In this document: one piece after another, positions 2,718 to 48,651 of the stretch
Layout: each line of letters opens with the position of its first letter
How positions within the stretch are numbered: position 1 is the first letter of the stretch
Assembly (NCBI GenBank): GCA_016716505.1
Contig: JADJWF010000002.1
Location: forward strand, 471,597-535,596
Source: Verrucomicrobiota bacterium
GTDB lineage: Bacteria > Verrucomicrobiota > Verrucomicrobiia > Limisphaerales > J093
Reading direction: 5' to 3'
DNA length: 64,000 nucleotides
The notes under the pieces: generated by a model
Database searches by the model: none
What the model was told of the DNA's origin: nothing
The model's input: only the letters and a program-made list of their open reading frames with translations
Position numbers and translations under genes: made by a program

Positions 2718-2795
2718 TGGCGGGTGGAACGTAGGCGGGAAGTTCCCCGTGTCAAGATTTGGAGTAATTCCAAATTACCCCTTGGCTCCGGCAAA

Positions 2796-3836
2796 TCACA
2801 GGGCGTTCAGGCGGTCAATGAATTCGCGCAGGCGGCCGTATGACTTCCGATCAAAACCGAGCGCCACCCGTGGCAGTTCCGGGAAGTCTTCATCCTCGCG
2901 CTCTTCCGGGGTCGCCTCAATCACGCGCGCCGGGCCCTCCGGCATCATCTCGGCAAAGTCCTCGTTCAGCGCGGCCAGGGCCGTCGCCGACGGCGCGTGC
3001 TGCAGCCGGATCACGAGCTGGTCTTTCACAAAGCGGCTCGAGTGGTAATTCCGGTAGAAGCGGGTGATCCATTTCACCGCCTGCTCGGGCCGGTCCGTGA
3101 TCTGGTAGAGGTTCAGGTCTTCCGGCGAAATCAACTCGTTGCGCAACAGGTGGTCGCGGATGTGTTGATGCCACGTCTTCCAGAAGGTGCCGCCCGGCTT
3201 GTCAATCAGCACCAGCGGCATGAGCTGGCTCTTGCCCGTCTGCATCAGCGTCAGCGCCTCGTAGCCCTCGTCCAGCGTGCCGAACCCGCCGGGGAACAGC
3301 GCCAGCGCATCCGAGTGGCGGATGAACGTGAGTTTGCGGGTGAAGAAGTATTTGAACGTGATCAGCTTCTGATCGCGCTCGATCACCGGGTTCGCCGCCT
3401 GTTCCCACGGGAGCCGGATGTTGACCCCAAAACTCATCTCCGGTCCGGCGCCCTCGTGACCCGCCTGCATGATGCCCGGCCCGGCGCCGGTGATCACCAT
3501 GAAGCCCGCCGCTGCCATCTGCCGGCCAAACTCGACCGCCTGTCGGTACTCGGGGCGGTCCGGCTGCAGGCGCGCCGAACCAAAGATGGTGACCTTGCGC
3601 CGGCCCGCGTATGGCTCGAAGACCTTGAAGGCGTACCGCAACTCGCGCAGTGCCGTCTGGACGATCTTCATGTCGCCACGATGCTTTACATCCCGCAGCA
3701 ACTTCAGCGCGGTTCGCACCAGGTCGGCCACCAGGTCTGGATGGTGACCGCCTCCGACGGCGGCGATCAGGGCTTCGATTTGCTGGTCCAACTCGGTCTG
3801 ACGAGGGCCGGATTTGCGGCTCGGAGTGCGCGGCAT
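2796..3836 (-). CDS. LOG-family (TIGR00730 / PpnN-like) nucleotide 5'-monophosphate nucleosidase
   Basis: 346 aa containing TIFGSAR, ITGAGPGIMQAGHEGA and PGGFGTLDEGYEALTL, the LOG/lysine-decarboxylase-like signature motifs. Confidence 0.8.
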   Translation of the reverse strand: MPRTPSRKSGPRQTELDQQIEALIAAVGGGHHPDLVADLVRTALKLLRDVKHRGDMKIVQTALRELRYAFKVFEPYAGRRKVTIFGSARLQPDRPEYRQAVEFGRQMAAAGFMVITGAGPGIMQAGHEGAGPEMSFGVNIRLPWEQAANPVIERDQKLITFKYFFTRKLTFIRHSDALALFPGGFGTLDEGYEALTLMQTGKSQLMPLVLIDKPGGTFWKTWHQHIRDHLLRNELISPEDLNLYQITDRPEQAVKWITRFYRNYHSSRFVKDQLVIRLQHAPSATALAALNEDFAEMMPEGPARVIEATPEEREDEDFPELPRVALGFDRKSYGRLREFIDRLNAL

Positions 3837-3937
3837 GGCGTGAAGCTACCGAAATCCTCCGCCCTCGCAACCACCGCGCCCGGGTCGGGCAGCGGCGGGC
3901 TTGCCGGCCCTCGGCCGACCGTGGTTTGCTTGCGCGC

Positions 3938-6271: not shown

Positions 6272-6326
6272 TCCGGCCAACGACGATTGCCCGCCGCCGG
6301 CGGCGCGCCGGCGGCTCCCGACGGCC

Positions 6327-7766
6327 TCACTTGCCTGCCGTGATCAGATGCCGCAGCCGGTGATACACCTGATCGGATTCGATCGGACCGGCGGGCAATT
6401 GGCCCGGCTTGCCGGTGAGCATCACCGGCCAGTCTGCCTGATTTGCGGACCGGACACCGTGGGAACCTTTGACCAGTCCCGCGTCGAGGGGAATCACATC
6501 CATCAACATCCGGAAGCCGAGCCGCTTCTGGAGCAGCCGCCACGCGATTTTTGCCCGCAGCCCGAGAGGTGAAAATGACGGATCGGCGAACAACTCGACC
6601 GGGTCGTAGCCGGGTTTGCGATGGATGTCCACGCAGCGGGCGAAGTCCGGCGCAACCGCGTCATCCAGCCAGTAGTAGTAGGTGAACCACGAGTTCTGCG
6701 GTGCCACGGCGATGAGGTCCCCGGCTCGCGGGTGATCCAGACCCGCGGCGGCTTTCTCAGCCGCCCCCAGCACCTCTGCGCCCGTCTGCTCGATCACCTC
6801 CCGCACCTCCCCGGCAATCCGCGGATCGCTCAGATACACATGCGCCACCTGGTGATCCGCCACCGCGAAGACCTGACTCGCGCCACAGTCCAGCAGTTCC
6901 CGCCCCAGTTCCTCGCGCACGGCGATCCAACCCCGCCGCCGAAACTCGCGGTTCAGGTGAATGGGTCGCTCCACGTTCACCAAGCCGTACTCGGACAACA
7001 CGATCACCTGCACCCCGCGCGCCTCGAAGAAAGCAATCAGTTCGCCCGCGATCGCGTCACTGGCCCGCAGGTCCGGGACAATTTGCGCCTTCAGCCGCGG
7101 ACCGTCCGACGGGCCGTCGCTGACGCCGTACCGCTGCAGGTTGTAGTCCAGGTGGGGCAGGTAAATGAGGTTGAGCGTCGGCTGAAACCGACCTTCGATC
7201 CACTTGGCCGACTCCGCGATCCAGCGGGTCGCTGCGTCGGGGCCGCCCTGCGGCGACGTCACGCCCGCCGCCGGTCCCCAGAAGGTGGCGAACGGGAACG
7301 GCCCAAGATCGCGCTGGATCTCGTGCCGCACGGCCGCGGGCCGCGTGTAAATGTCGAACACCTTGCGGCCGTCTGCCGGGTACATCGGCCGCGGTGTGAT
7401 CGAGTAATCGGCGGTCGAGTACATGTTGAACCACCAGAACAGCTTGGCGCAGGTGAACTGCGGGTCGCAGGCGCGCAGTTCGTCCCAGAGTTTGGGCGCG
7501 GTGACCAGGTGGTTGGACTGCTTCCAAAAATGCACCTCCGCCAGCTCGCGGTGATACCAGCCATTGCCGACGATGCCGTGGTCCCGCGGCAGCCGGCCGG
7601 TGAGATAGTTCGCTTGGGCGGTGCAGGTCACCGCCGGGAAGGCCGGTGCGATCGGCGCGAATGAGCCCCGTTCGCGAAAACGCCGCAGATGCGGCGTGTG
7701 CTCGCTGAGCAGAGTGCCGCTGAGGCCGACCACGTTCAGGACAGCGGTCCGTTGCATGGGGTTCAT
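6327..7766 (-). CDS. Alkaline-phosphatase superfamily protein (nucleotide pyrophosphatase/phosphodiesterase-like, EboF-like)
   Basis: Motifs VVGLSG, FPAVTCTAQANYLTGRLPRDHGIVGNGW and LPHLDY are typical of the AP/NPP superfamily. The likely ATG at 7766 forms an ATGA overlap with the stop of the upstream DHQS-like gene. Confidence 0.8.
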   Translation of the reverse strand: MNPMQRTAVLNVVGLSGTLLSEHTPHLRRFRERGSFAPIAPAFPAVTCTAQANYLTGRLPRDHGIVGNGWYHRELAEVHFWKQSNHLVTAPKLWDELRACDPQFTCAKLFWWFNMYSTADYSITPRPMYPADGRKVFDIYTRPAAVRHEIQRDLGPFPFATFWGPAAGVTSPQGGPDAATRWIAESAKWIEGRFQPTLNLIYLPHLDYNLQRYGVSDGPSDGPRLKAQIVPDLRASDAIAGELIAFFEARGVQVIVLSEYGLVNVERPIHLNREFRRRGWIAVREELGRELLDCGASQVFAVADHQVAHVYLSDPRIAGEVREVIEQTGAEVLGAAEKAAAGLDHPRAGDLIAVAPQNSWFTYYYWLDDAVAPDFARCVDIHRKPGYDPVELFADPSFSPLGLRAKIAWRLLQKRLGFRMLMDVIPLDAGLVKGSHGVRSANQADWPVMLTGKPGQLPAGPIESDQVYHRLRHLITAGK

Positions 7767-9172
7767 CCGCCTGCGCCGCAACGCGGGCGGGCGCGCCAGG
7801 CCAATTCCTCGATCGCGTCGGCGACGATCGCCTCGTTCATCGTGTGAACCTCGACTCCCCGACCGACGCCGGCGAGCAGCGTCACCGTCAATTCGCCGCC
7901 CAGATGCTCGCGAAACTCTTCCAGCCCACGCAGGACAGCGAGCCGCCCGGACGGCTCGCGGAGACGGAGTGCTTCGGCGAACAAGTCGAAGCCCAAGAGA
8001 CCCAGCAGCGCCAGCACGCGGTCGCCTTCCGCCGCGTCCAGCAGGCCCACCCGGCGCGAATAGAGCGTGTCCAAGGCGACGCCGATGGCCACGGCCTCCC
8101 CGTGACGGATCCGATAGTCGGAGAGTTGCTCCAGCTTGTGCGCCGACCAGTGCCCAAAATCCAGCGGTCGGGCGGAGCCGAACTCGAAGGGATCGCCGCT
8201 GCTGGCGATGTGGTTCACGTGGAGTTCGGCGCTGCGGCGGATCAACGCGCGCACCGGCTCCGGCTCAAAGGCCGCCAGCCGCGCGGCATCGCGTTCGATG
8301 GTCTCGAAAAACGCGGCATCACGGATGAGCGCAACTTTGACCGCCTCGGCCAGGCCCCCCCGCCGTTCGCGCGCGGGCAGCGTGGAAAGCAGGTCGAAGT
8401 CATTCAGCACGGCAAACGGGGGGGCAAATGCGCCGAGGAAATTCTTTTTGCCGAAGGCGTTCACACCGTTCTTCACGCCCACGCCGGAATCGGCTTGGGC
8501 CAGCGTGGTGCTGGGCAGGCGAACGTGCCGCACCCCACGATGCGCGGTGGCGGCGGCAAACCCCACCACATCAAGATGCGCCCCGCCCCCGACCGCGAGC
8601 ACGTACGAGTGGCGGCAAATCCCGTGTTGTTCGATGGCAGCCTGAACCTGCCCGACCAGCGCCGGGTCATTCTTCGCCGCCTCCCCGCCGGGGAGCACCA
8701 CCGGGGGCGCCACCAGCCGGGCCGAACCGCGCCGCGCCTCGAAGTACCCGACGACGAGCGCCGGAAGGTCCGGCCTGGCCTGCACCAGCCCGGCATCCAA
8801 GGTGACCAGCACCCTGGCCGGACCGGGACTCGCGGTCAGCAAATCCGCGAGCAACGGATTCGCAGCGCGGAACGCGCCCTCGGTGAAGAAGACGCGATGC
8901 CGGAAGGACACTGGAATCTCACGCTCCAGAGACTGCACGCCGGCAGCATGATCCGTTTGGGCGCCCTTGGCGAGGGCGGGGTGGTCACGGGCCACGCATC
9001 GCGCCGGTGGCGGTTGCAGTATGGAGCCGAAGCACCATTGGCCTGCGGGAGGCGTGAGGCCCCGCCAGGATGGGGACCGGGAGCCTTCCGGGGGAGTCCT
9101 TACTTGCCGGAGATCGCCTGCCACTTTGACTAATGGGAGGTTTTCGGTTGTCCGACCCGGGTTAGCGGTCAA
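7763..9172 (-). CDS. 3-dehydroquinate-synthase-like sugar phosphate cyclase (DHQS superfamily, EboD-like, not canonical AroB)
   Basis: Contains LAVGGGAHLDVVGFAAATAHRGVRHVRLPSTTLAQADSGVGVKNGVNAFGKKNFLGAF and HWSAHKLE...HGEAVAIG. The start is uncertain: the first 78 codons look non-homologous, and a GTG at 8938 (VQSLEREIPVSFRH...) is a plausible true start. Confidence 0.78.
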   Translation of the reverse strand: MTANPGRTTENLPLVKVAGDLRQVRTPPEGSRSPSWRGLTPPAGQWCFGSILQPPPARCVARDHPALAKGAQTDHAAGVQSLEREIPVSFRHRVFFTEGAFRAANPLLADLLTASPGPARVLVTLDAGLVQARPDLPALVVGYFEARRGSARLVAPPVVLPGGEAAKNDPALVGQVQAAIEQHGICRHSYVLAVGGGAHLDVVGFAAATAHRGVRHVRLPSTTLAQADSGVGVKNGVNAFGKKNFLGAFAPPFAVLNDFDLLSTLPARERRGGLAEAVKVALIRDAAFFETIERDAARLAAFEPEPVRALIRRSAELHVNHIASSGDPFEFGSARPLDFGHWSAHKLEQLSDYRIRHGEAVAIGVALDTLYSRRVGLLDAAEGDRVLALLGLLGFDLFAEALRLREPSGRLAVLRGLEEFREHLGGELTVTLLAGVGRGVEVHTMNEAIVADAIEELAWRARPRCGAGG

Positions 9173-9199
9173 ACTCCCGGCCCACCTTGGTGGTGCGGG

Positions 9200-11119
9200 A
9201 TGTCCTCGATCGTGTCCTCAGAAGCCATTTTGCTCCTGCTGCTCATTGCCGGGCCGATGATTTTCGGTGCGGCCGCCTGGGGCGTGCGGACGGAATCCGC
9301 CCGCCGGGGCGTCGTGCTGGCGGCGGTGGGATGTGTAGTCGCCAGCGGTTTGGCCCTAGCGCTCCGCGGGCCGTTTGTGCTTGCGGGCGCCCGGTGGCTG
9401 GAGCCGCTGGGCGGGATCCTGGAGGCCGCGCTGGTCGGCGTCTTTTTCGCCCTCGGCGTGTGTCGCCGAATGTGGCTGGTGGCCGCCGCCGCCGGCGTGC
9501 AGGCGGGGTTGCTGGTCTGGGAGCACTTCGGCGCCGACCCGGCCAGTTCCGTGGCACCGCCGTTCATCGTGGATCCTTTGTCCCTGCTCCTGGTGCTTAT
9601 CATCACGCTGGTGGGTTCGGTGATCCTCCTGCATGGGATCGGGTACATGGGCCGGCACGCGGAACACGCTCCGCCAACTGCCGCCCAGAACGGCCGTTTC
9701 TTTCTGGTTCTGATTGGCTTTCTGGGGCTGATGAACGGCCTGGTGCTGGCAGACAGCCTGCGGTGGTTCGCGGTGTTCTGGGAGGGTACGACGCTCTGTT
9801 CGTACTTCCTGATCGGTCACGACGGCACGGAGGAAGCCAAGGCGAGCGCGCGGCGGGCGCTGACCCTCAACGCGCTCGGCGGAGCGATGTTGTCGCTGGG
9901 CATGGTGTGGGATCACCGCCAGGGGGGCACGGGCTTGATCAGCAACCTGATCGCCAATCCCGCCTCCACGCCGCTGGTCTTTCTGCTGACGGCCGCGTTT
10001 GTGAAGTCGGCGCAGATGCCGTTTCAGAGCTGGCTGCTGGGGGCCATGGTGGCGCCCACGCCGGTGTCCGCACTGCTGCATTCCAGCACGATGGTGAAGG
10101 CGGGTTCGTACCTCGTGCTGCGGCTCGCGCCGGCGTTTGCCAGCACGCCGCTGGCCCTGGTGATCGCCCTGGCCGGGGCCTTCACCTTCGCGGCCACCTC
10201 GGCGATGGCGATCAGCCAGAGCAACGCCAAGAAGGTGCTGGCTTACTCGACGATCGCCAACCTCGGCCTGATCGTCGCGTGTTCCGGCATCAACACGCCG
10301 CTGGCCTACGCCGCCGCGCTCGTGGTGCTGGTGTATCACGCGATCTCGAAGGCGCTGTTGTTCCTCTGCGTCGGCACCATCGAACAGCAGATCGGCAGCC
10401 GGCACATTGACGCGATGGGGGGAATCTTCTTCAAGCTGCCCCTCACGACAACCATCGCCGCGCTGGGCATGATTTCGATGATGGCGCCGCCTTTCGGAAT
10501 GCTGGTCGGCAAATGGATGGCCATCGTCTCCGCCGGCCAGACGCCCCTGGTCCTGGTGCTGCTGGTCATCGGCAGTGCCCTGACCATTTTCTTCTGGGGC
10601 AAGTGGCTGGGGCGGATTGTCACCACGGCCTATCACGAGAAATATCACCTCGAGAAAATCCCGCGGACGATGAGCGCGGCGCTCGTGGTGCTCGGCGCAA
10701 TGGTCCTCGTCGCCGGTGCCGGGGTCATGACGGTGTACCGGGCATGGTTGCGACCGCTGGCCATCTCGACCCTTTCGCACGTTTATCTTCAGCCCGATTC
10801 ACTCGGGCTGCTTCAGTCGGTGGACAGTTTCATGGGCTGGCCGATCATGGTGACGTTGCTGGTGGTGGTGCTGGCGGGGCTGGCCTCGTTCTTCGGGCTG
10901 CGCCGCACGCAGGTTCGTCTGCCCTACTTGTGCGGCGAGAACGTCGTCGTCGGCACGCGGACCTTCGAGTTCCGGTCGGTGATGGACCAGCGCACGACCG
11001 CCCAGGTCACCAGCTACTATTTCACGCACCTGTTTGGGGAGGAAACCATGACCCGCTGGGCCAACCTGGTGGCGCTGCTCATTCTCCTGAGCCTGTTCGC
11101 CCGCGTCAGCCTGGCATGA
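9200..11119 (+). CDS. echA: Ech hydrogenase membrane subunit A (NuoL/HyfB-like antiporter-type subunit)
   Basis: 639-aa polytopic membrane protein with a NuoL/Mrp-antiporter-like core (WEGTTLCSYFLIGH, FVKSAQMPFQSWLLGAM.APTPVSALLHSSTMVKAG). It is the first gene of the hydrogenase operon. Confidence 0.85.
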   Translation: MSSIVSSEAILLLLLIAGPMIFGAAAWGVRTESARRGVVLAAVGCVVASGLALALRGPFVLAGARWLEPLGGILEAALVGVFFALGVCRRMWLVAAAAGVQAGLLVWEHFGADPASSVAPPFIVDPLSLLLVLIITLVGSVILLHGIGYMGRHAEHAPPTAAQNGRFFLVLIGFLGLMNGLVLADSLRWFAVFWEGTTLCSYFLIGHDGTEEAKASARRALTLNALGGAMLSLGMVWDHRQGGTGLISNLIANPASTPLVFLLTAAFVKSAQMPFQSWLLGAMVAPTPVSALLHSSTMVKAGSYLVLRLAPAFASTPLALVIALAGAFTFAATSAMAISQSNAKKVLAYSTIANLGLIVACSGINTPLAYAAALVVLVYHAISKALLFLCVGTIEQQIGSRHIDAMGGIFFKLPLTTTIAALGMISMMAPPFGMLVGKWMAIVSAGQTPLVLVLLVIGSALTIFFWGKWLGRIVTTAYHEKYHLEKIPRTMSAALVVLGAMVLVAGAGVMTVYRAWLRPLAISTLSHVYLQPDSLGLLQSVDSFMGWPIMVTLLVVVLAGLASFFGLRRTQVRLPYLCGENVVVGTRTFEFRSVMDQRTTAQVTSYYFTHLFGEETMTRWANLVALLILLSLFARVSLA

Positions 11120-38932: not shown

Positions 38933-39877
38933 TCACGCCGGCGTACCGAACCGGCGCAGGAAGTCCTCGTACGCGCCGCGAATCCCAGCGTCGAAATCCA
39001 CCTCCGGTCGCCAGCCCAGGGAGAAAATGCGGGAGCTGTCCATCAGCTTGCGGGGCGTGCCATCGGGCTTGGTCGGGTCCCAGGCAATCTCCCCGGCGTA
39101 ACCGACCACCCGCGCGACCCGTTCCGCCAGTTCCTTGATGGTGAGATCCCAACCGCTGCCGACGTTGATGAACTGCTCTTCGCTGTACTCGCGCATGAGG
39201 AACACGCACGCCCGGCCCAGGTCGTCCGCGTGCAGGAATTCGCGGCGCGGTGTGCCGGTGCCCCAGCACACGACCCGCGGCGCGCGGGCCACCTTCGCTT
39301 CGTGGAACCGGCGGATCAGCGCCGGCAGGACATGCGAGTTCAGCGGATCATAGTTGTCGTTGGGACCGTAGAGATTAGTGGGCATGGCGCTGATAAAGTC
39401 GCAGCCATGTTGCCGGCGATAGGCCTGGCAGAGCTTGATGCCGGCGATCTTTGCGATGGCGTACCATTCGTTCGTCGGCTCCAGGGGCCCAGTCAGCAGC
39501 GACTCCTCGCGCAGGGGCTGCGGGGCCAGCTTCGGGTAGATGCACGAACTGCCGAGGAACAGCAGCCTGCGCACGCCGGCGCGCCAGGCCTCGTGGATCA
39601 CGTTGCACTCGAGCACGAGGTTGTTGAAGAGGAAGTCGGCCGGGAAATCGTTGTTGGCCTTGATGCCGCCGACCTTCGCCGCCGCCACGAAGACAAACTC
39701 CGGCCGCTCCTCGGCGAAGAACCGGCGGACCGCCGCCGCATCGAGCAAATCCAGCTCCGCGTGGGTCCGGCCGATCAGGCGGGTGAAGCCTTCGCGCTCG
39801 AGGGCGCGCCAGATGGCGCTGCCCACCAGGCCGCGGTGGCCGGCCACGTAAATCCTCGCGTCGCGTGCCATCTCCAT
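38933..39877 (-). CDS. fcl: GDP-L-fucose synthase
   Basis: 314 aa with [28 protein letters not shown] and TNLYGPNDN motifs. Confidence 0.93.
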
Positions 39878-40112
39878 GATGGCCGCAGGTTAAGCGCCGC
39901 CCCGCCTGAAGCAAGCCGGAGCGGCCGTCAACGCGCCGGGAAAGCTGAAGAGGGAGGGGCCGGCGGACGGTTGAAGCCCATCCCGTGGCAGGCACCAGTT
40001 CTGCGCCGCCGCGGCCACCATTCGCTGGCCCAAAAGCGTCCTCCGCCGGTGGTAGCGAGCGGCATGGTTTCTCCGCTTGTTCGCTCCGCGGCATCGGCCT
40101 ACGCTGCTGACC

Positions 40113-40182
40113 GGCAATGGAGTTTGCCGTCTGGCTCGTCCAGAAAACCGCCTGAATCGTTTTCAGCGCTGATGACTCCTGC
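40113..40182 (+). promoter_or_regulatory. Fluoride riboswitch (crcB motif), variant with an inserted hairpin
   Basis: GGCAA-TGGAGT-TTGCC (P1 enclosing the 5' pseudoknot strand), an extra hairpin TCTGG-CTCGT-CCAGA, AAACCGCC, a P3 hairpin, then GCGCTGATGACTCCTGC. ACTCC pairs with GGAGT. The conserved AAAC..GCC and CUGAUGAnUCCU blocks are present. It lies 146 nt upstream of a DUF190 gene. Confidence 0.75.
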
Positions 40183-40327
40183 CGAACTGCGGAAGCTGAT
40201 CGGTGGCGAAGTGATGTGGAGTCAGCTCCAGACCGGGCGGCCGAACGCGCAGGCAAGCGCGTCCGAAGCCCTCGCTTTCCACGCCACGGGTTGGCGTTGA
40301 GGCGAATGTTCCCGAACCCATCCGTTT

Positions 40328-40687
40328 ATGCATCTCCCCCATGAAGCCATGCTGCTGCGGATTTTCCTTGGCGAATCCGACCGCTGGCAGCACCGCCCGC
40401 TCTACGAAGCCATCGTCCTCAAGGCGCGCGAGGCGCACCTGGCCGGCGCCACCGTGCTGCGCGGACCGATGGGCTTCGGCAAATCCAGCCGGCTCCACAC
40501 GGCGAAAATCCTCCGCCTCTCGATGGACCTGCCCCTGGTCATCGAAATCGTGGACACCGAGGAGAAGATCCAGGCTTTCCTGCCTGTGCTGGACGAAATG
40601 ATGCAGGGCGGTTTGGTCACGCTGGAAAAGGTGAAGGTGATTGACTACCGCGCCGGCCCGGAGGCCGAGGCCTCGCCGGAAATCTGA
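40328..40687 (+). CDS. DUF190 (PII-like, COG1993) protein
   Basis: 119 aa. LRIFLGESDRWQHRPLYEAIVLKAREAHLAGATVLRGPMGFG is the typical DUF190 core. Confidence 0.8.
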   Translation: MHLPHEAMLLRIFLGESDRWQHRPLYEAIVLKAREAHLAGATVLRGPMGFGKSSRLHTAKILRLSMDLPLVIEIVDTEEKIQAFLPVLDEMMQGGLVTLEKVKVIDYRAGPEAEASPEI

Positions 40688-40699
40688 ACCCGCCCGATC

Positions 40700-41914
40700 A
40701 TGGACAACATCTGGTTCATCGCCGCGTTTTGGATGGGGCTGGCGCTGCTGGCCAGCTTGATCTCCATCCGGCTGGGCATCTCGGTCGCCTTGATCGAGAT
40801 ACTCGTGGGCGTGGTGGTCGGCAATCTGCATGGCCCGGGCCAGGCGCCGCTCCTGCACACGACCGAATGGACCAACTTCCTGGCGATGCTCGGCAGCGGC
40901 GTGCTGACGTTTCTGGCCGGGGCGGAAATTGACCCCGCCTCGCTCAAGGCCAACCTGCGAGCCAGCATGACCATCGGGGTCGTCTCATTTTTGCTGCCGT
41001 TTCTGGGCGTGTGGTTCTTTGCGCAATACGTCCTGCACTGGCCGTTGCACCAGGCCTGGATCGCGGGCATCGCGCTGTCCACCACCAGCGTGGCGGTGGT
41101 CTATGCGGTGATGATCGAAGGCGGGTTGGGCAGCACGCCGCTGGGCAAAACGCTGCTGGCCGCCTGCTTCATCACCGACTTCGGCACGGTGCTGGCGCTG
41201 GGCGTCCTGTTCGCCGACTTCAACCTCTGGCTCATCGTCTTCGTCGGCGTGTCGGCGGTGCTGCTCTGGTTCATGCCGCGCTGGACGCGCTTCATCATCA
41301 CCCGGCTGGGCGCGACGCGCGTGAGCGAGCCGGAGGTGAAGTTCCTCTTCCTGGTCTTGTTCTTCCTCGGCGGGTTGGCGTCCACCGCCAAGAGTGAGGC
41401 CGTGCTGCCGGCCTATCTGCTGGGCCTCGTCGTCGCCGGCGTGTTTCTGCGCGACAAGACCCTCGTGCATCGGATGCGTTCCATCGCCTTCGCCATCTTC
41501 ACGCCGTTCTACTTCATTAAGGCGGGCCTGTTTGTCTCGCTGCCGGCGCTGTGGTCCGCCCTGGGCGTCATCGCGCTGCTGCTGGCGATGAAACTGGCGA
41601 CCAAGTATGTCGGCGTCTGGCCGCTCTCACGCGTGTTCTGGATGCGGTCGCGCGAGGCGAATTACACCGCGCTGCTGATGTCCACCGGGCTGACCTTTGG
41701 CACCATCTCCGCCCTGTTCGGCCTGCAAAACCAGATTATCAGTCAGGAGCAGTACTCCGTGCTGGTGACGGTCGTCATCCTGAGCGCGTTCGTACCGACG
41801 CTGATCGCCCAAAAGTTTTTCCAGCCGACCCTGCGGACGATGAACGCGTGGGGCCGACTCTACCAACGCAAGGTCAACGGCAAATCCACTGCCCCACCGA
41901 CCATCGGAAAGTGA
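40700..41914 (+). CDS. Cation:proton antiporter (CPA2/Kef-type Na+/H+ exchanger family)
   Basis: 404-aa polytopic protein with a sodium/hydrogen-exchanger-family layout (GISVALIEILVGVVVGN, FLAGAEID). Confidence 0.85.
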   Translation: MDNIWFIAAFWMGLALLASLISIRLGISVALIEILVGVVVGNLHGPGQAPLLHTTEWTNFLAMLGSGVLTFLAGAEIDPASLKANLRASMTIGVVSFLLPFLGVWFFAQYVLHWPLHQAWIAGIALSTTSVAVVYAVMIEGGLGSTPLGKTLLAACFITDFGTVLALGVLFADFNLWLIVFVGVSAVLLWFMPRWTRFIITRLGATRVSEPEVKFLFLVLFFLGGLASTAKSEAVLPAYLLGLVVAGVFLRDKTLVHRMRSIAFAIFTPFYFIKAGLFVSLPALWSALGVIALLLAMKLATKYVGVWPLSRVFWMRSREANYTALLMSTGLTFGTISALFGLQNQIISQEQYSVLVTVVILSAFVPTLIAQKFFQPTLRTMNAWGRLYQRKVNGKSTAPPTIGK

Positions 41915-41921
41915 GGCCATC

Positions 41922-42347
41922 ATGTTTCAGAAAATACTTGTCGGTTACGACGGCTCGAAAGGCGGGCGCGCCGCGCTTGAGCGCGCCGCGGCGCTCGCCC
42001 GCGAAGGCAACGCGCAACTGACCGCCATCTGGGTCCGCCAACCCCTGCCCCGACACGCCGACCTGCCCGGCGAACCAGAAGGTGAGGAGGAAGCGGCACA
42101 CGACTACTTCGCGGAGCGCAAACGCGAAGTCGAGGAGGTGGCCAAACGGTTTGGTGTCCCCATCACCTGCGAGAGCAAGGCCGGCCACGCCGCCAAGGTC
42201 ATCGTCAACTTCGCCAAGGAAAAGGGCTTTGACCTCATCGTCGTCGGCCACAGCGATCATTCCGAACTCTGGGGCCGCCTGCTCGGCGACACCGCCGACC
42301 GCATCAGCGATCACGCCCATTGCAGCGTGCTGATTGTGAAGGCGTGA
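41922..42347 (+). CDS. Universal stress protein (UspA family)
   Basis: 141 aa: MFQKILVGYDGS...DLIVVGHSDHSELWGRLLGDTADRISDHAHCSVLIV. Confidence 0.85.
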   Translation: MFQKILVGYDGSKGGRAALERAAALAREGNAQLTAIWVRQPLPRHADLPGEPEGEEEAAHDYFAERKREVEEVAKRFGVPITCESKAGHAAKVIVNFAKEKGFDLIVVGHSDHSELWGRLLGDTADRISDHAHCSVLIVKA

Positions 42348-42419
42348 ACCGGCCTGCCCGGGTCGCCCAAGGCAAGCTTCGCCATTTGCCATCGGCTGCT
42401 CCAAGGCCAGCAGCACGTC

Positions 42420-43011
42420 GGGCTGGGCCTCGTTGCTGATCGTAGATCAAGCGTTCCGGAACACAGCGAGCGAGGCCTCGCGAGCCAGATCGGGGCGGCC
42501 AGCGTGGGTGAGATGCTGCCCCCTTAACCCGCGAGATCATGTTCATCGCGCGCCACCTCGCCGGCACCCGGAGCGGACGCCGCGCCCGGGCGAAGTCTCC
42601 CAGCTCGCCCAGCGGCTGATGCAACACCTCGGCGTACAGGAAGACCAGCGCGTTCAACGCCTGATTCTGCGTCGAGGCGGACACCCGGCCTGCGGTGGCC
42701 AAATGGGTCAGAAACGCCGTGACCTCGGCTGCCCCCATCTCCCGGGGGTGCCGCCACGCCTCCGGCCCGGCGATTCCCGGCCGCTTGTGGAATCGCAAGT
42801 ACCGCACGATCCACTGCCAGTACGCCTCCTCCGTGCGCTGCGAGTAATGGAAGAAGCGCATCACCTCGTGGACCTGCTCCCGCAACGAAGCCCTGGGATT
42901 GGGTTGCAGCCGGCCCAGGGGCCGCTGTCGCGCTGGTGGCGTGCTAGGCGACAAAAAATCGGGCGAGGCTGGCGAATTCAACGGCTTGACAGGCAGTTGA
43001 GAAACCTTCAC
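42420..43011 (-). pseudogene. intI: Integron-integrase-like tyrosine recombinase, N-terminal fragment (frame lost, catalytic domain absent)
   Basis: LREQVHEVMRFFHYSQRTEEAYWQWIVRYLRFH...AAEVTAFLTHLATAGRVSASTQNQALNALVFLYAEVLHQPLGELGDFARARRPLRVP matches the pattern of IntI N-terminal SAM-like domains. After RRPLRVP the expected VVL..EV..L.G continues only in another frame (GAGEVARDEHDLAG, then stop). No R-H-R-Y catalytic domain follows. The maximal ORF (to 42304) runs into the usp 3' end. Confidence 0.7.
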
Positions 43012-43087
43012 CCTGCGTAATCATCGATATAGTCACAACCGTTGAAATGCAACTGTCGCTCACTTAACTGATGGGCGAAGAGAAACT

Positions 43088-43450
43088 ATGCCAAATCGCA
43101 GACTCACTGACAAAGAGCTTCAAGATTTGTTTCGCCCGTTATACGAGCAGGTGACCGGGCGTATGCAGGAGTTGAGTCGTGGCGCTTCGGATTTGCTTTG
43201 GGCACTCCGCCGCAAGCTGGCCAAGAGTTTGGTGTACGACGAGCGGGGCACTCCGATGCACCGTCGCCGCATCAAGACGCTCAAGCGTGCAGAGCAGCAG
43301 GGACTTTGTGCCATTTGCCGCGAGCCTTTGCCCGAACGTGGCGCAGTGCTGGATCGTTTGGAGGCTATGCAGGGGTACACACTCGCCAATACTCGCTTGC
43401 TTTGCCGTGAGTGTGATGAGCGAGTACAGGCGGAGCGGAAGTACACATGA
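43088..43450 (+). CDS. Small HNH-like zinc-ribbon protein (catalytic His replaced)
   Basis: 120 aa. The C-terminal CAICREPLPERGAVLDRLEAMQGYTLANTRLLCRECDERV follows the CxxC...DH...N...CxxC(H) HNH layout but has DR and D at the His positions. It sits in a lower-GC context and is the first ORF after the intI remnant. Confidence 0.5.
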   Translation: MPNRRLTDKELQDLFRPLYEQVTGRMQELSRGASDLLWALRRKLAKSLVYDERGTPMHRRRIKTLKRAEQQGLCAICREPLPERGAVLDRLEAMQGYTLANTRLLCRECDERVQAERKYT

Positions 43451-43476
43451 GCATTGCCGCGCCCATCCATGCAGTC

Positions 43477-43565
43477 GAGCGAACCGCGAGCCAGCCGACC
43501 GGCTCGCTTGGTAAAGGCGGCGTCAGGGGCGGCTGGCTCGCGGTCGCTCACTTTTTACGTTAGCC
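43477..43565 (+). repeat. attC-like partial site / terminator hairpin (site 1)
   Basis: GAGCGAACCGCGAGCCAGCCG (43477-43497) pairs with CGGCTGGCTCGCGGTCGCTC (43530-43549), with one extra A in the 5' arm. This is followed by ACTTTTTAC and GTTAGCC (43559-43565). I found no RYYYAAC-like box on the 5' side. Confidence 0.4.
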
Positions 43566-43615
43566 CGTGACGTCGCGGGCGAGTCGAACACGCACAGCAA
43601 CCAGAAACGCCCACC

Positions 43616-44311
43616 ATGAAAACAACCGTCAGAACCACGAAAGGAATCGCAGTCGCAATCACGGCGCTGGCGTTGGCCAGCGCGAGCGTCACTCAACTCC
43701 AAAAACACTCCGAACCGGGCACGTATTATTCGGCCAAGGATTTCGAGTGGAGTCCCCCGTGGCCGTTCCACCCGCATCCAGAACTCGATGCGGTCGAGAT
43801 CGAGCCGGGCATTTTCGTCTTTGACGACACGACCATCCCAGACACGCCGCAGCAGGCTGAGGCACGCAAGCGGCACGAGCAGGCGGCGGCGCACGCCGCC
43901 GCCATCGCGGCTGACCCCGTCCTTGCCGCAGCAGCGCGACAAACAGCCGAGGAAGCCGCGCGTCAGGCCGAGGCGAAATGGCAAGAGAAGAAGGCCGCGC
44001 TTGCGCCACAGATACGGGCACTGATTCCGCCCGGACAAGCGACCAGCGAGCAAAAGCAGCAAGATGGCGAAGCGGAATTCGCAGCACTGCGTGAGCAGGC
44101 GGTGCGCTCCGCAGCGGAACAGCCAGCCAAGGAGCGCGCACTCGACGAACTGGCCAAGCGGCTCGGCGTGCCGCGCGAGATTCAGGAATCAGATGGGCGG
44201 ACGTTGATTCTGACGGACGAAATTGCTGGTTCACCGGCCTACCTGAGCAGCCACAACACGGTGGCGGCGGCGGGCATCAGCGCGGACGAGTTGTGGCCGC
44301 TCGGTGCCTGA
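43616..44311 (+). CDS. N-terminal segment (signal peptide, Ala/Gln-rich linker, pre-catalytic region) of an S8 peptidase, ended by an in-frame TGA
   Basis: Signal peptide MKTTVRTTKGIAVAITALALASA. The C-terminal NTVAAAGISADELWP is the segment that normally precedes the Asp box of subtilases. It is in the same frame as the following ORF. Confidence 0.7.
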   Translation: MKTTVRTTKGIAVAITALALASASVTQLQKHSEPGTYYSAKDFEWSPPWPFHPHPELDAVEIEPGIFVFDDTTIPDTPQQAEARKRHEQAAAHAAAIAADPVLAAAARQTAEEAARQAEAKWQEKKAALAPQIRALIPPGQATSEQKQQDGEAEFAALREQAVRSAAEQPAKERALDELAKRLGVPREIQESDGRTLILTDEIAGSPAYLSSHNTVAAAGISADELWPLGA

Positions 44312-44368
44312 CCTAATTCGGACAGCAACACGGGGCGGAATCTGACCGGCACAAATGTCACGCTGGCC

Positions 44369-46219
44369 TTGTGGGAGAATGACGGCGGGGTACGCACCAA
44401 CCACATGGAGTTTGGCACGCGGGTGCGGCAACGGGACAACGCAGCCGTGGACGCCACCGGCCACGCCACGGCCGTGGCTGGGACCATGGCGGCGGGCGGG
44501 GTGGGCAGCATCTTCGGTCAGTTTTACGAGGCGCGCGGCGTGGCATATCAAGCGCGCGTGTTTGCTTACGACTTGGGGAATTTCAAGAGCGAGCGCGAGT
44601 CGGCGGCGGCAGGCGACGCGACTAACGCGCCGGTGTTTCTGGGTAACCATTCGTGGGGGTTGGCGAACGGCTGGCGGCGGCACCAGACGATCACCAATCA
44701 GTTTGGCGCGGTCGTGACCAACGCTTGGGTTTGGTGGGGACCACCCGAAGCCAGTTTTCCCGAAGACCCAAAGTTCGGTCTTTATACCCGCACCAACATT
44801 CAGGATACCGGCTGCGTTCAAATTGACCAGTTTCATTACGCGGAGGCGCTGCGCCATTTGATGGTCTATTCATGCGGAAATGACCGTTTCGAAGGTCCGG
44901 GCACATCCCCGGGCACCTACTACTGGTTGAGCAACGGCGTTTTTGTTGCCAGCACGGTCACCCGCGACTGGCAGGACGGCGACGACGGCGGTTACGATTC
45001 ACTTTCCGCACCGGGCAACGCCAAGAACGTGTTGACGGTGGGCGCGTGCGAGGATGTCTTTTGGATCAGCAACACGTTCCTCTATTTCGGCATCGGGCCA
45101 GGAGCCAATGCGGTTCCAGCCCCTTTCAGCGGGGCCGGCCCGACCGATGACGGGCAGCTCAAGCCCGACCTAGTTGCCGTCGGCACGCCCAATCTCTGGT
45201 TGCGCGACTTGATGGGCCAGGTCAGCGGCACGAACATCCTGGGGTTGATCTCTCCCACGGTTGTGGCCACCAATCTCGGTGCGACCAACTTCTACGCCGT
45301 CACTGCTCGCTGCACGAGCTTTGCCGCGCCCGGCGTGGTGGGCGGGCTGGGCTTGGTGTTGCAGGGGCGGGCGCAACTGTATCCGCTGTTGACCAACGCT
45401 ACGGATGCGTGGCTGAACTCGACACTCAAGGCGGTAGCAATTGACACGGTGGATGACGTGGGCGCGGAAGGGCCGGATTATCGGTTGGGGCATGGGATTT
45501 TCAACGCCCGGCGTGCGGTGGAGCGCGTGGAACAGGACTACACATGGGGCCGTGGCTCGCTCATCAGAGAGTTCACGCTCTCGCCGACGCAATCGGTTTC
45601 GTGGGTCGTGACCGCCAGCGGCACGAAGCCGCTGTCCGTGACAGTAGCGTGGAGTGACCCGCCGGGGCCGGCCATCACCAACGTCGCGGCGGCGGACATG
45701 CCCAATCCAATGCTGGTCAACAATCTGGACGTGGTTGTGGAGCGACTTTCGGACAGCACCTTGTTCCGCCCGTGGGTTCTGAATCCCGATCTGACGAACA
45801 AGATGGCCAACGCCCGTTCGGCTGCGGCGACCCGCGGGGTGGACAACCGGAACAACGTCGAGCGAGTTTCGATTGCCACACCGTCAGCGGGTGAGTATCG
45901 CATCACCGTGACGCACTCCGGCGGGCTGCCGGGGAATCCCGCACCCAGCATGCAGAAGGTCTCAGTGGTTTCGGGCGGGGTGACGCCGCCAGCGCCGGTC
46001 ATCACCGCGTTGGAGAAATCACCCAGCACGAATGAGTTCCTGCTGACATTTGTGGCGGACCCCGGCGCTTATTTCACAATCTTGACCTCCACCAATGTTG
46101 CCACGCCTCTGTCCAACTGGACGAGCGCGGTTTCGGCGCTGGCCCAGAGCGTCACCAACACGGTGGTGTTGACCAGCAGTGCTGAGCATCGCTTCTGGGC
46201 GCTACGGCGCGGACAATGA
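44369..46219 (+). CDS. S8 (subtilisin-family) serine peptidase catalytic portion; the frame is open from 44312
   Basis: Asp box LALWENDGGVRTNHMEF, His box GHATAVAGTMAAGG and Ser box TSFAAPGVVGG, followed by beta-sandwich C-terminal domains. The TTG at 44369 is only the first listed start. Codons 44312-44368 are open and homologous (NLTGTNVTLA). Confidence 0.8.
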   Translation: MWENDGGVRTNHMEFGTRVRQRDNAAVDATGHATAVAGTMAAGGVGSIFGQFYEARGVAYQARVFAYDLGNFKSERESAAAGDATNAPVFLGNHSWGLANGWRRHQTITNQFGAVVTNAWVWWGPPEASFPEDPKFGLYTRTNIQDTGCVQIDQFHYAEALRHLMVYSCGNDRFEGPGTSPGTYYWLSNGVFVASTVTRDWQDGDDGGYDSLSAPGNAKNVLTVGACEDVFWISNTFLYFGIGPGANAVPAPFSGAGPTDDGQLKPDLVAVGTPNLWLRDLMGQVSGTNILGLISPTVVATNLGATNFYAVTARCTSFAAPGVVGGLGLVLQGRAQLYPLLTNATDAWLNSTLKAVAIDTVDDVGAEGPDYRLGHGIFNARRAVERVEQDYTWGRGSLIREFTLSPTQSVSWVVTASGTKPLSVTVAWSDPPGPAITNVAAADMPNPMLVNNLDVVVERLSDSTLFRPWVLNPDLTNKMANARSAAATRGVDNRNNVERVSIATPSAGEYRITVTHSGGLPGNPAPSMQKVSVVSGGVTPPAPVITALEKSPSTNEFLLTFVADPGAYFTILTSTNVATPLSNWTSAVSALAQSVTNTVVLTSSAEHRFWALRRGQ

Positions 46220-46902
46220 GCACTCGATGGCTCAACTGGCTGCTGCTGGCAGCCGGGCTGCTCGGCCCGGCTGCCTCAGCGGCACTGGCACAAGGCACCA
46301 TCATTACGACAGTTCTACCGTCTCCTTTAGGGATCTGGAGTCCCCTGAATACCCTGCTTTGGCCGATTGATCTGAATGGTGATGGACTGGAGGATTTCAC
46401 ATTCGCCGCCGACTACTCCGGAGTGGGACTGCGCACCGAGCGGGCGAATCGGGTTGTAGTGAGGCTGTCGCCGCCTCCGAACATTGGGGGACGGGTTGCC
46501 AAACTGGACGATGGATTTGAGGTTGGGTCTTCACTTGATCCGCAATTGGCATGGCTGTCCAGCGATCCAGTGGGCGGCTACGTTTCGCCGGGGGAATGGG
46601 CGTTTGCCAGCATTGCAATTGCTGTAAGCACTGGCGAATCCAGCGATTGGCCGAGCATTCCAGGGGCACGTGGTTTCATCGGCATTCAGTTCGAGCTAGC
46701 CGATGGGTTTCACTTTGGGTATCTCGATGTTCACATGGTGGCGGAAGGAGGAGGCGTGCTATTCGGCTGGGCCTACAATACGATCCCGAACGCCCCGATC
46801 ATCGCCAGTCCGGTGCCGGAGCCGTCCACTTGGGCGCTTGTGGTCGGAGGAGGAGTGGTGGTGGTGTGGTTCAGACGAAAGAGGAATGAAAGGAGGGGCT
46901 AA
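46216..46902 (+). CDS. PEP-CTERM sorting-domain protein
   Basis: Signal peptide plus the C-terminal VPEPSTWALVVGGGVVVVWFRRKR motif. ATGA overlap with the S8 peptidase stop. The stop codon TAA lies inside the GGCTAAC box. Confidence 0.85.
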   Translation: MSTRWLNWLLLAAGLLGPAASAALAQGTIITTVLPSPLGIWSPLNTLLWPIDLNGDGLEDFTFAADYSGVGLRTERANRVVVRLSPPPNIGGRVAKLDDGFEVGSSLDPQLAWLSSDPVGGYVSPGEWAFASIAIAVSTGESSDWPSIPGARGFIGIQFELADGFHFGYLDVHMVAEGGGVLFGWAYNTIPNAPIIASPVPEPSTWALVVGGGVVVVWFRRKRNERRG

Positions 46903-47034
46903 CCAGATCACTGGAGCGAACAGCCGCCCCGCTTCGCAGTTCGAGAGTCGCGGGCTTCGGCGAGACGTTCTGGTCGTCGAGAGTCACGGGCGTTAGCACG
47001 GCGGGGCGGCTGTCGCTCAGTTCTGGCGTTAGCC
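46897..47034 (+). repeat. attC-like site 2 (138 bp)
   Basis: GGCTAAC-CAGATCACTG-GAGCGAACAGCCGCCCCGC ... GCGGGGCGGCTGTCGCTC-AGTTCTGGC-GTTAGCC. The arms are complementary apart from extra bases (TC, G, A) in the 5' arm. The boxes match RYYYAAC and GTTRRRY with one mismatch each. The next ORF's ATG lies 3 nt after the box. Confidence 0.6.
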
Positions 47035-47036
47035 CT

Positions 47037-47765
47037 ATGAGAAACTGCATCCTGTCCCTCGCCGCATTCCTTCAAGCGTCGGTTTGTTTTGGCCAGGGGT
47101 CGCTTTACTCGTTCTCTGGGAACGTGAGCAGCCTCTTCTACGACGGTGGTGGCATTCTGGCGGCGCAGAATGTCACCGTCGGAGATCCTGTATCCGCCAG
47201 TTACATCGTTGATTTTGGAGCGCCAGGGTTCTACCGGCTCAACGATGGAACTGTTGATGTACCCGCCGACCCACCGTTGGGCAACGTGCATACGACGTAT
47301 TTCTACTGCCGTTTGGCCTCAGGCACGCTGCTGCCTGAAGCCAATGGAGGGCTGAATAATCGCCCCCAAGACGTGGCTGAGTACTTCACGGGCTGGAACC
47401 AGAGCAGTCCGATGGGAAATGAGGGGTTGTTGTGGGGAGGCACCGGTGATTCCTACTTCACCGTCCGGAAATCGAGCTTCACGAGCGAAAGCCAAGTGCA
47501 GGAATGGCAGGTCGGAACGGAGGTGCGTGGCGTCATTGTCGCTTACAGCGATCAGGATTGGTCTATAGCTTGGGCAGACATGCGGTTGGATTCCATTACG
47601 CCGGTGCCGGAGCCGAGCATCTTGGCGTTGCTTTGCATGGGCAGTGCGGCGTGTTTCGTGTGGAGTCGGCGAGGGGCTAACAAACCGGATGCACCGAACC
47701 CGGCAATAGCGCCTCAGTTTCACATCGGTCACCACTGGCGCCGGGTCGGTGATCCGGGTCGGTGA
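47037..47765 (+). CDS. PEP-CTERM sorting-domain protein with a read-through tail
   Basis: Signal peptide MRNCILSLAAFLQASVCFGQG. The PEP-CTERM motif is PVPEPSILALLCMGSAACFVWSRRG. About 30 further codons follow, translated from the attC-like repeat. Confidence 0.8.
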   Translation: MRNCILSLAAFLQASVCFGQGSLYSFSGNVSSLFYDGGGILAAQNVTVGDPVSASYIVDFGAPGFYRLNDGTVDVPADPPLGNVHTTYFYCRLASGTLLPEANGGLNNRPQDVAEYFTGWNQSSPMGNEGLLWGGTGDSYFTVRKSSFTSESQVQEWQVGTEVRGVIVAYSDQDWSIAWADMRLDSITPVPEPSILALLCMGSAACFVWSRRGANKPDAPNPAIAPQFHIGHHWRRVGDPGR

Positions 47766-47780
47766 TCCGGGTCGTTGGAC
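47675..47780 (+). repeat. attC-like site 3 (106 bp) containing a 13-bp tandem duplication
   Basis: GGCTAAC-AAA-CCGGATGCACCGAACCCGGC ... GCCGGGTCGGTGATCCGG-GTC-GTTGGAC. The 5' arm has extra G and A. GTTGGAC fits GTTRRRY exactly. GGGTCGGTGATCC is repeated in tandem (47743-47755 and 47756-47768). Confidence 0.55.
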
Positions 47781-47896
47781 GGGGCACGCGCCGGCGCGGG
47801 CGTACAGCCGCCGCCGGCCGGTGGCCACCGCCTCCGGCGCGCGGACGGCGGCCGGCGACCCGGGACACCCGCGCCCCGGCGTTCGTTTTCCCGGAA

Positions 47897-48137
47897 GACC
47901 GTTCGCTGCATGGCATCTTCACAGTGGCCAGCAACGTGGACAAGGGGTGTGATGACTGGTACCAGAGGGAGATGCACCACTGCTACGATGCTGGCGAACT
48001 GCGCCCGCCCGTCAGCGGCGAGAAGCGAGTGGTGCGCGGTGGCACCAGTTGGGGACGGCAGAAGCTATGGTTTCGCTGCGCGCGCGCCGCGGCCCCGCAC
48101 CCAACTCAGCAGCGCGCCCTGGGCCTTTTACGACCGC
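47897..48137 (+). pseudogene. Degenerate C-terminal fragment of an FGE-sulfatase (SUMF1-like) domain
   Basis: SLHGIFTVASNVDKGCDDWY...PVSGEKRVVRGGTSWGRQKLWFRCARA echoes the GLHDMHGNVVEWC...RGGSF...FR tail of the intact FGE gene at 31586-33745. It lacks everything upstream of that tail. Confidence 0.4.
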
Positions 48138-48651
48138 CCAGCGGACCGCGTACCATCTGCAAGCGGCGTCACGCTCGACCCCGGGACGTCGCGCTTGAAG
48201 GCCGCGAACCCGAAGCGCCCCCCGTGCGGGTCGCGTTTGCGTTCGACGCTGCATTCGCCACCGTCGGCTGGCTGATCCCGGTGACCGCCTTCCGCGACCC
48301 GATCGAGCGCGTGCTCCTCCGCAAAGCGCGTTACGAGGTGGAGAAAAACCTCTCCCGCCTTGCCGCCGACTGGCGCGACCGGGTTACCGTGGTCATCGAA
48401 GAGTTGAGGCGACAAACCGAGCAGGCCGCCCAGAGCGAACTGGACTCGCTCGAGAACCTGCTGAACCAAACCGCGTCCACCGTGCCACGCCTCCGCGATC
48501 AAATCGCCGCATTGGAAGCCACCGCAGGCGATCCGACCCTCCCTCAATCTTGAGGGACGACGGGGTTCCCCGCCGCCGTTCAACCGGGACGCCGCCGTGC
48601 CGGCCGCGATCGCTTCTTGACGATCGTCGGGGCAAGGCGTAGCACGCCGCC

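Follow-up and report, generated by a model that had tools for sequence, protein, structure and literature searches.

A very probable worn-out chromosomal integron with PEP-CTERM and subtilase gene cassettes in an uncultured member of the Verrucomicrobia

Clusters of attC sites lacking integron-integrases (CALIN) were defined by the authors of IntegronFinder, who located intI pseudogenes near 15 of 279 CALIN by means of C-terminal profiles; integrons are also reported in Verrucomicrobia (2016, PMC4889954). Here, we analyse a 64,000-nucleotide stretch of a Verrucomicrobiota bacterium (the window; GenBank assembly GCA_016716505.1, contig JADJWF010000002.1, positions 471,597 to 535,596), which very probably contains a worn-out chromosomal integron of uncultured Verrucomicrobia, composed of a truncated intI gene, a mutated attI site, and three gene cassettes (Table 1). 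As in CALIN (PMC4889954), at least two attC sites bound promoterless cassettes, no functional integrase lies within reach, and an intI remnant adjoins the array. In contrast to the pseudogenes found near CALIN, however, this remnant is purely N-terminal; a screen with intI_Cterm and PF00589 would probably overlook it and report an ordinary CALIN.

The locus shares its IntI lineage with sedentary chromosomal integrons from Verrucomicrobiota and other environmental bacteria (for instance loci L028, L021, L011, and L101). Its N-terminal integrase domain is 80–95% identical to the integrases P0010, P0021, and P0042, and about 50–65% identical to those of the loci we fetched. The attC architecture, the attI core (CACTTAACTG/TTAGGC, the slash marking the crossover point), and the divergent orientation are likewise common to the fetched loci and the window. 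While the fetched loci combine an intact intI with arrays in which more than 20 near-identical attC sites can be packed into 10 kb, the window holds three cassettes with heterogeneous, damaged sites and a truncated intI. A further parallel comes from Xanthomonas, in which the chromosomal integron locus is conserved across the lineage. To judge by a preprint (bioRxiv 10.1101/2025.06.18.660453) and by the earlier literature, the Xanthomonas integrase has decayed as well while the cassette array persists, in a different phylum and with different cargo.

The element is an ordinary representative of this well-known class, a CALIN or degenerate integron, and not a new type of element; its PEP-CTERM cargo and its 3.5-kb two-gene cassette are mildly unusual. 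Its attC sites are spaced by 3.3 kb and 0.6 kb, where IntegronFinder asks for at least two attC sites within 4 kb and no integrase nearby, and no intact intI occurs in the window. Both an intI with catalytic and IntI-specific domains and an attI with a GTT crossover, as expected of a complete functional integron, are absent from the locus.

Table 1. Features of the integron locus and its flanks (coordinates refer to the window; E, E-value).
Feature	Coordinates	Strand	Basis
intI remnant, N-terminal SAM-like domain only	42562..42981	-	PF13495, TIGR02249, tblastn
attI-like site, TGTCGCTCACTTAACTGATGGGC	43054..43076	+	alignment with regions upstream of intact intI
cassette 1, 489 bp	43071..43559	+	attI core and attC1 R' boundaries
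attC1	43461..43565	+	R1 34.3 bits, E 1.7e-7, full length
cassette 2, 3469 bp, two-gene module	43560..47028	+	Pfam; homology starts at G/TTAGCC
attC2, intact	46897..47034	+	R1 60.9 bits, E 5.7e-15
cassette 3, 746 bp	47029..47774	+	Pfam; 95% DNA identity to the L089 cassette
attC3	47675..47780	+	R1 39.8 bits, E 4.9e-9, aligned as 47675-47768
universal-stress-protein gene (left flank of the region)	41922-42347		Pfam Usp
right flank, chimeric open reading frame of fused gene fragments, GC 0.70	47781-48553	+	GC; Pfam FGE-sulfatase

The identification of the array is based on an attC model derived from related integrons. An IntI-alignment scan of species-representative genomes yielded 80 loci in which intI is intact, each with at most 10 kb of flanking sequence, a set that contained neither the source metagenome-assembled genome (MAG) nor the contig of P0010. 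Across these loci, a strict detector (NNNTAAC...GTTANNN, 7/7 bases complementary, foldable arms) picked out 76 sites, of which 75 lie on the cassette side of intI; its single match in the window is attC2. On the cassette strand, the sites share one architecture: GCCTAAC or GGCTAAC is followed by a 5-nt spacer, CTG[G/C]AGC[C/G]A[A]C, the stem, a variable loop, and the complementary arm, which lacks the two bracketed bases and leads via a 6–8-nt spacer to GTTAGGC or GTTAGCC. The covariance model R1 was built from 26 non-redundant attC sites beside intact intI, the window being excluded; 95% of the cells in its alignment pair, and compensatory changes occur at 16 of 23 pairs.

Searched against the whole window with filters off, R1 returns exactly three significant matches, all on the plus strand. 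A fourth match under E 0.1 is the minus-strand shadow of attC2 (E 0.022), and the best unrelated match reaches 13.6 bits (E 0.12), so that no similar hairpin is scattered elsewhere in the 64 kb. The model is specific. It gives 165 matches at E ≤ 1e-3 in the 925 kb of the 80 loci, and wherever the position of intI was compared, the matches fall within the cassette array and on the other strand from intI, the exceptions being one inverted locus (L071) and weaker reverse-strand shadows. In the held-out loci L099–L101, all 18 distinct R1 sites are on the cassette side of an intact intI, two other rows being reverse-strand shadows. The matches and their orientation identify the three hairpins as attC sites of the family that verrucomicrobial integrons use, with cassettes reading away from the intI remnant.

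Rfam has no family that matches the region. A loose detector (NNNNAAC...GTTNNNN, 6/7 complementary, folding-energy cut) gave dozens of matches per strand in the 65%-GC window and was discarded as useless, while the gapped pattern GGCTAAC...GTTRRSY with a 40–70-nt gap has no match in the window because the sites are longer than that gap. In the inverted locus L071, from a Candidatus Acidiferrales MAG, the array (2748-10253, nine R1 matches) lies downstream of intI (653-1597) and shares its strand; none of the other fetched loci with a compared layout is arranged in this way.

The three sites differ in their state of preservation. AttC2 shows every feature expected of an attC, an imperfect palindrome with R''/R' boxes (RYYYAAC...GTTRRRY), an unpaired spacer, an L box, and a variable loop: R'' is GGCTAAC, R' is GTTAGCC (47028-47034), and G46913 and A46920 are extrahelical on the R''–L'' arm. 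The stop codon of the preceding PEP-CTERM gene lies within R''. Among attC sites of other contigs, one of the L089 array shares 88% identity with attC2 and one of L083 shares 83%. As single-stranded DNA, attC2 folds at −42 to −46 kcal/mol (z −5.6 and −6.6; bottom strand z −5.6). In attC1, R'' is degenerate (GCCCATC at 43461) and only 4 of its 7 bases are complementary to R' (GTTAGCC, 43559-43565); the DNA fold has −34 kcal/mol (bottom-strand z −3.4). AttC3 combines R'' GGCTAAC with R' GTTGGAC (47774-47780), and its 3' arm contains a 13-nt tandem duplication of GGTGATCCGGGTC (47748-47760 and 47761-47773). The homologous attC of L089 is unduplicated, which both reveals the duplication and locates R'; the bottom-strand fold of attC3 has a z of −2.2. 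In all three sites, two single bases, C or G and then A, bulge out of the 5' arm at a distance of 6 bp, at columns that R1 models as unpaired. The heptamer GGCTAAC occurs four times in the window, always in these sites. By its sequence, attC2 alone looks fully competent.

With small corrections, these results uphold an earlier note on this stretch, which was written from the letters alone and proposed an integron with an inactivated integrase and an attC array. The extra unpaired bases it described on the 5' arms correspond to the two bulges, and the hairpins do fold as DNA. The GGCTAAC frame it reported holds for the second and third hairpin and fails for the first. As for its spacing of open reading frames (ORFs) behind the GTT boxes, the one at 43616 indeed starts 50 nt after R', while the one at 47037 starts 2 nt and not 3 nt after it.

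Two of the cassettes recur elsewhere as discrete units. The cassette 2 module, consisting of a peptidase gene that overlaps by 4 nt with the gene for a PEP-CTERM protein of ~223–240 aa, is present in L083, L085–L088, and L097 in different surroundings. DNA homology to these contigs begins at 43540-43570, at the R' box of attC1, and the sequences upstream are unrelated. At the right end, homology enters R'' and the 5' arm of attC2 and stops at a different point in each contig; in L097, the 3' arm of a different attC stands in front of the module. Homology between cassette 3 and its L089 counterpart extends exactly from 47028, the G of GTTAGCC, to 47757. In L089, a different attC lies directly upstream of this cassette, and more attC sites follow on both sides. 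Because homology breaks at G/TT, cassettes 2 and 3 are discrete units that were placed in different arrays at the canonical crossover. The region is consequently no invariant syntenic block, an outcome that would have spoken against an integron.

Some of these contexts lack an integrase. In L083 and L085, the module is joined at ...ACTGTTAGCC and ...ACTGTTCGCG, respectively, with no intI within 10 kb, and tblastn detects no intI remnant beside the S8 module in L083 or L085–L088. Cassette insertion outside att sites, at GWT motifs (attG), has been demonstrated experimentally (bioRxiv 10.1101/2022.09.11.507474). In L083 and L085–L088, in contrast to the window, the S8 and PEP-CTERM cassette is joined at GTT with no attC directly upstream, which fits attG insertion. 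The upstream sequence is also attI-core-like, so that an eroded integron would explain these contexts equally well.

Further observations concern the same contigs. L085 and L086 are near-identical contigs with the S8 and PEP-CTERM module, and differ by a 1664-bp segment (L086:5479-7142 versus L085:7143-7149) located exactly at an attC R' end; the segment contains a 554-aa ORF with a weak DUF4139 match. This difference is a cassette presence/absence polymorphism in an array without intI within 10 kb. In L083 (13100-14698), the PEP-CTERM gene is followed by only the start of an attC (R'' and ~20 nt), then by 1.4 kb with ORFs of 77 and 411 aa that belong to no known family, and finally by the attC resembling attC2, here without R'. 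This arrangement could reflect cassette fusion or insertion into an attC. Immediately before its S8 module, L083 also carries a DDE transposase gene. Moreover, L097 (1-4797) and L098, from other samples, carry an intact 867-aa S8 peptidase allele with its PEP-CTERM partner. There, the module follows an attC 3' arm and precedes an IS91-type (Y2_Tnp) transposase, while the attC of the module itself breaks off directly behind R''.

The gene facing the array encodes the N-terminal part of an integron integrase. The minus-strand ORF at 42304-43011 is 100% identical to MBK9138198.1, a protein from a 902-kb contig with the annotation 'phage integrase N-terminal SAM-like domain-containing protein', and matches the Pfam family Phage_int_SAM_4 (PF13495, E 6e-28). 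It retains only the N-terminal ~140 residues of an integron integrase. Its best NCBIfam matches, TIGR02249 and NF011946, are confined to the first hundred or so positions; in the integron-integrase profile TIGR02249, positions 3–100 of 315 are covered with 95 bits against a cutoff of 265. With the remainder of the protein absent, both scores stay well short of the cutoffs, which are set for whole proteins. In tblastn, residues 1–108 of P0010 align to 42885-42562 with 95% identity and residues 1–156 of P0003 to 42981-42511, and full-length IntI relatives find no C-terminal integrase piece in any frame of the 64 kb.

Relatives among 5.8 billion proteins are mostly full-length (~330–390 aa, with PF13495 and PF00589). 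Many are named 'integron integrase' at source and are 75–95% identical to the fragment over the N-terminal part; the nearest are integron integrases, not XerC/D or phage integrases. When 13 relatives are aligned with the window ORF, the IntI-specific patch ALARKYPNAxxEWxWQWVFP is seen in the relatives, while the window ORF tracks them up to RRPLRVP and is unrelated afterwards. The integrase N-terminus without catalytic domain, already recognised on the minus strand in the earlier note, is thus borne out by Pfam, TIGR02249, and tblastn. The frame does not break behind it as that note assumed; instead, the ORF stays free of stops down to 42304, and only homology ends at 42562. As the ORF continues uninterrupted into unrelated sequence, intI was cut by a deletion at about 42562 and not broken by a frameshift. 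The 85 residues past this breakpoint give nothing credible at relaxed Pfam thresholds.

Between the remnant and the first cassette lies a candidate attI site. An alignment of the regions upstream of intI contains a conserved motif that ends in CACTnnnCTG/TTAGGC; at this position, L101, the closest intact locus, reads TGTCGCCCACTTAACTGTTAGGC and L002 reads GCCGGTCACTTAACTGTTAGGC. GTTAGGC occupies the core in at least 11 of 19 relatives. The 7-bp core of the window (43070-43076) is GATGGGC in place of the G/TTAGGC of its relatives; of the two substitutions, one turns the GTT triplet into GAT. The first cassette ORF begins 17 nt past the crossover point. About 80 nt upstream of the attI core, a TTGACA-like box (42986-42991) is conserved and aligned in L099, L101, L002, and L022. 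It lies within the 5' end of intI, faces the cassettes, and could represent the −35 element of a cassette promoter or an integrase-binding repeat.

The cargo encodes predicted secreted or surface proteins, in agreement with the PEP-CTERM and protease content claimed earlier. The two-gene module of cassette 2 comprises an S8 peptidase pseudogene (43616-46219; Pfam Peptidase_S8, 1.5e-29) and a PEP-CTERM gene (46216-46902; Pfam PEP-CTERM, 5.9e-5), which overlap by ATGA. PADLOC yields generic subtilase matches for the peptidase and none for the other cassette proteins. Full-length homologues of the peptidase mostly have 800–870 aa. The pseudogene contains an in-frame TGA (44309-44311) at a codon that specifies Trp in 6 of 6 homologues, a TGG-to-TGA change. 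This stop codon creates an apparent extra ORF. Cassette 2, which the earlier note put at about 3.4 kb with "two or three ORFs", therefore consists of two genes and not three.

Cassette 3 encodes another PEP-CTERM protein (ORF 47037-47765; Pfam 4e-6), unrelated to that of cassette 2. Its ORF reads through R'' (..RRGAN..) into its own attC, which is not a sign of damage because most homologues read through GCTAAC as well. In the alignment of cassette-3 homologues (A4), most end in ..RRxAN.. and continue for 10–60 residues, and the passage of the ORF through R'' into attC adds a variable tail after the sorting signal. Cassette 1 (ORF 43088-43450) encodes a 120-aa Cys-rich protein of unassigned function. 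It matches no Pfam, NCBIfam, or PADLOC family and nothing credible at relaxed Pfam thresholds, and has 307 relatives at E ≤ 1e-3 among 1.8 billion cluster representatives, many of them ~119–120 aa long. The ORF of the first cassette in L099 (122 aa) is unrelated to it. In a regular-expression scan of 402 cassette-side ORFs from related loci, PEP-CTERM-like C-termini amount to one doubtful case, so they are not a general feature of related arrays, and the literature searched contains no mention of PEP-CTERM together with integron cassettes. On both counts, the cargo is a little unusual.

The base composition of the array fits the expectation for acquired DNA. Its GC content (43020-47780) is 0.613 and lies below that of all 498 other segments of the same length in the 64 kb (mean 0.658, minimum 0.630), which confirms the suspected AT-richness of the stretch from 43020. 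The GC content at third codon positions is 0.62–0.77 in the cassette ORFs compared to 0.78–0.90 in the flanking genes. Both measures are thus lower in the cargo than in the surrounding host genes.

We propose that the locus is a sedentary chromosomal integron no longer equipped with recombination functions of its own. Cassettes would have been captured by IntI-mediated recombination at G/TT, as the positions of their boundaries suggest, inserted at attI by an IntI, and read in one direction, away from intI. Their expression would have depended on a promoter near attI, for which the TTGACA-like box and a sigma-70-like match are the candidates. Today, the platform is probably unable to capture cassettes alone and appears largely frozen: an integrase is missing in cis, attI has GAT instead of GTT, the R''/R' complementarity of attC1 is lost, and attC3 bears the 13-nt duplication. 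In addition, the S8 peptidase gene, the largest of the cargo, has become a pseudogene. Decay, which the earlier note attached to the integrase, thus extends to the attI core, to two attC sites, and to the cargo. Taken together, the cargo comprises the subtilase with its PEP-CTERM partner, the other PEP-CTERM protein, and the small Cys-rich protein.

A different reading of the same locus is that the array is still alive, as a satellite CALIN shuffled in trans by an intact integrase that another part of the genome encodes. In its favour, attC2 is undamaged and reaches scores like those of sites in active-looking arrays, and the integrase P0010 (MBK9139600.1), the close relative of the remnant noted above, is an intact IntI of 361 aa. 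Its accession number is ~1400 away from those of the window proteins MBK9138198.1 and MBK9138200.1, which would place it probably in the same MAG on another contig, of 826 kb. The cassette-sized indel that distinguishes L085 from L086 exactly at the attC R' box moreover concerns related arrays without a nearby intI. Against this stands that excision needs two competent sites, whereas the R'' of attC1 is degenerate, the stem of attC3 is duplicated, and the attI core has no GTT. Five Logan contigs from four runs overlap the stretch at 99.8–100% identity and all have the same arrangement, with no variant order. Further, P0010 itself contains a 28-aa insertion near the catalytic region, between HSFATHLLE and RTVQELLGH, which none of twelve other relatives has, and its place in this genome is read from accession numbers. 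We therefore consider an array that is still shuffled unlikely.

Far less probable is that faulty assembly or binning of the MAG produced both the truncation and the nonsense codon, and that the organism has an intact, active integron at this place. It is true that chimeric contigs occur in MAGs and that assemblies often fail at integron repeats. However, Logan contigs from other sequencing runs match 39806-42825 and 42796-46934 at 99.8–100% identity. Two of them cross the breakpoint: L094 (SRR7903765) covers 39806-42602 at 100%, from the universal-stress-protein gene into the intI fragment, and L095 (SRR12997672) covers 41309-42825 at 99.8%. As these are independent assemblies, the truncation is not an artefact of binning or assembly. 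The TGA of the peptidase gene is likewise found in L081 (SRR12997673) and L082 (SRR11674018). We give next to no credence to the idea that the hairpins are generic REP-like repeats or terminators beside a phage-type recombinase fragment: they are GC-rich stem-loops right after ORFs, and the attC1 hairpin overlaps a terminator-like pattern (43527-43549), but R1 finds only these three in 64 kb, with a 45-bit strand preference (attC2 scores 16.1 bits on the minus strand) and conserved bulge positions, the 5' arm of attC2 is identical to an attC of the L011 array at ~30 of 36 bases, cassette homology breaks exactly at G/TT, and the nearest relatives of the fragment are integron integrases.

Several points nevertheless weigh against interpreting the locus as a decayed integron. 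The remnant is assigned to intI by its N-terminal domain and its nearest relatives only, since the catalytic domain and the IntI-specific insertion are deleted, and the attI assignment relies on alignment to relatives. The evidence for a cassette promoter is a weak 9-of-12 sigma-70-like match at 42997-43024. The pairing statistics of R1 are partly circular, as the detector behind its training set demanded complementary R boxes and foldable arms; this circularity does not extend to the matches that R1 makes in the window or the held-out loci. Finally, the attC scan covers the 64 kb of the window, so that attC-like sites elsewhere in the source genome are possible.

As a decayed integron, the locus leaves the general understanding of integrons unchanged. 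It offers a well-documented case of decay in a little-studied phylum, in which intI, attI, attC, and cargo have each reached a different stage of erosion. As screens based on the C-terminus would miss N-terminal-only remnants, local loss of the integrase may have given rise to a larger share of CALIN than is currently estimated. The cargo, for its part, hints that cassettes of Verrucomicrobia can carry exosortase substrates and multi-gene secreted-protease modules. S8 plus PEP-CTERM cassettes and single PEP-CTERM cassettes recur across metagenomes, both in arrays and at integrase-free sites. Speculatively, integron recombination in Verrucomicrobia might move such cassettes as ready-made surface modules, and integrons and secondary-site insertion might together form a diversification system for exosortase-sorted surface proteins, with decayed platforms serviced in trans by paralogous IntI, a generalisation that we regard as doubtful.

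Further genes around the locus encode a Na+/H+ exchanger on the left, the side of the universal-stress-protein gene, and a TIM-barrel isomerase on the right. On the right, no R1 match occurs in the window downstream of attC3, and the array gives way to a chimeric ORF. Here, an FGE-sulfatase-type fragment (residues 28–111) is fused in frame to an unrelated, coiled-coil-like fragment; apart from FGE-sulfatase, relaxed Pfam thresholds give nothing credible for these pieces. The FGE-sulfatase piece covers only positions 155–238 of the 255 in the profile (E 6e-4) and is thus a C-terminal fragment. This chimera suggests that more deletion or rearrangement took place at the right edge of the array.

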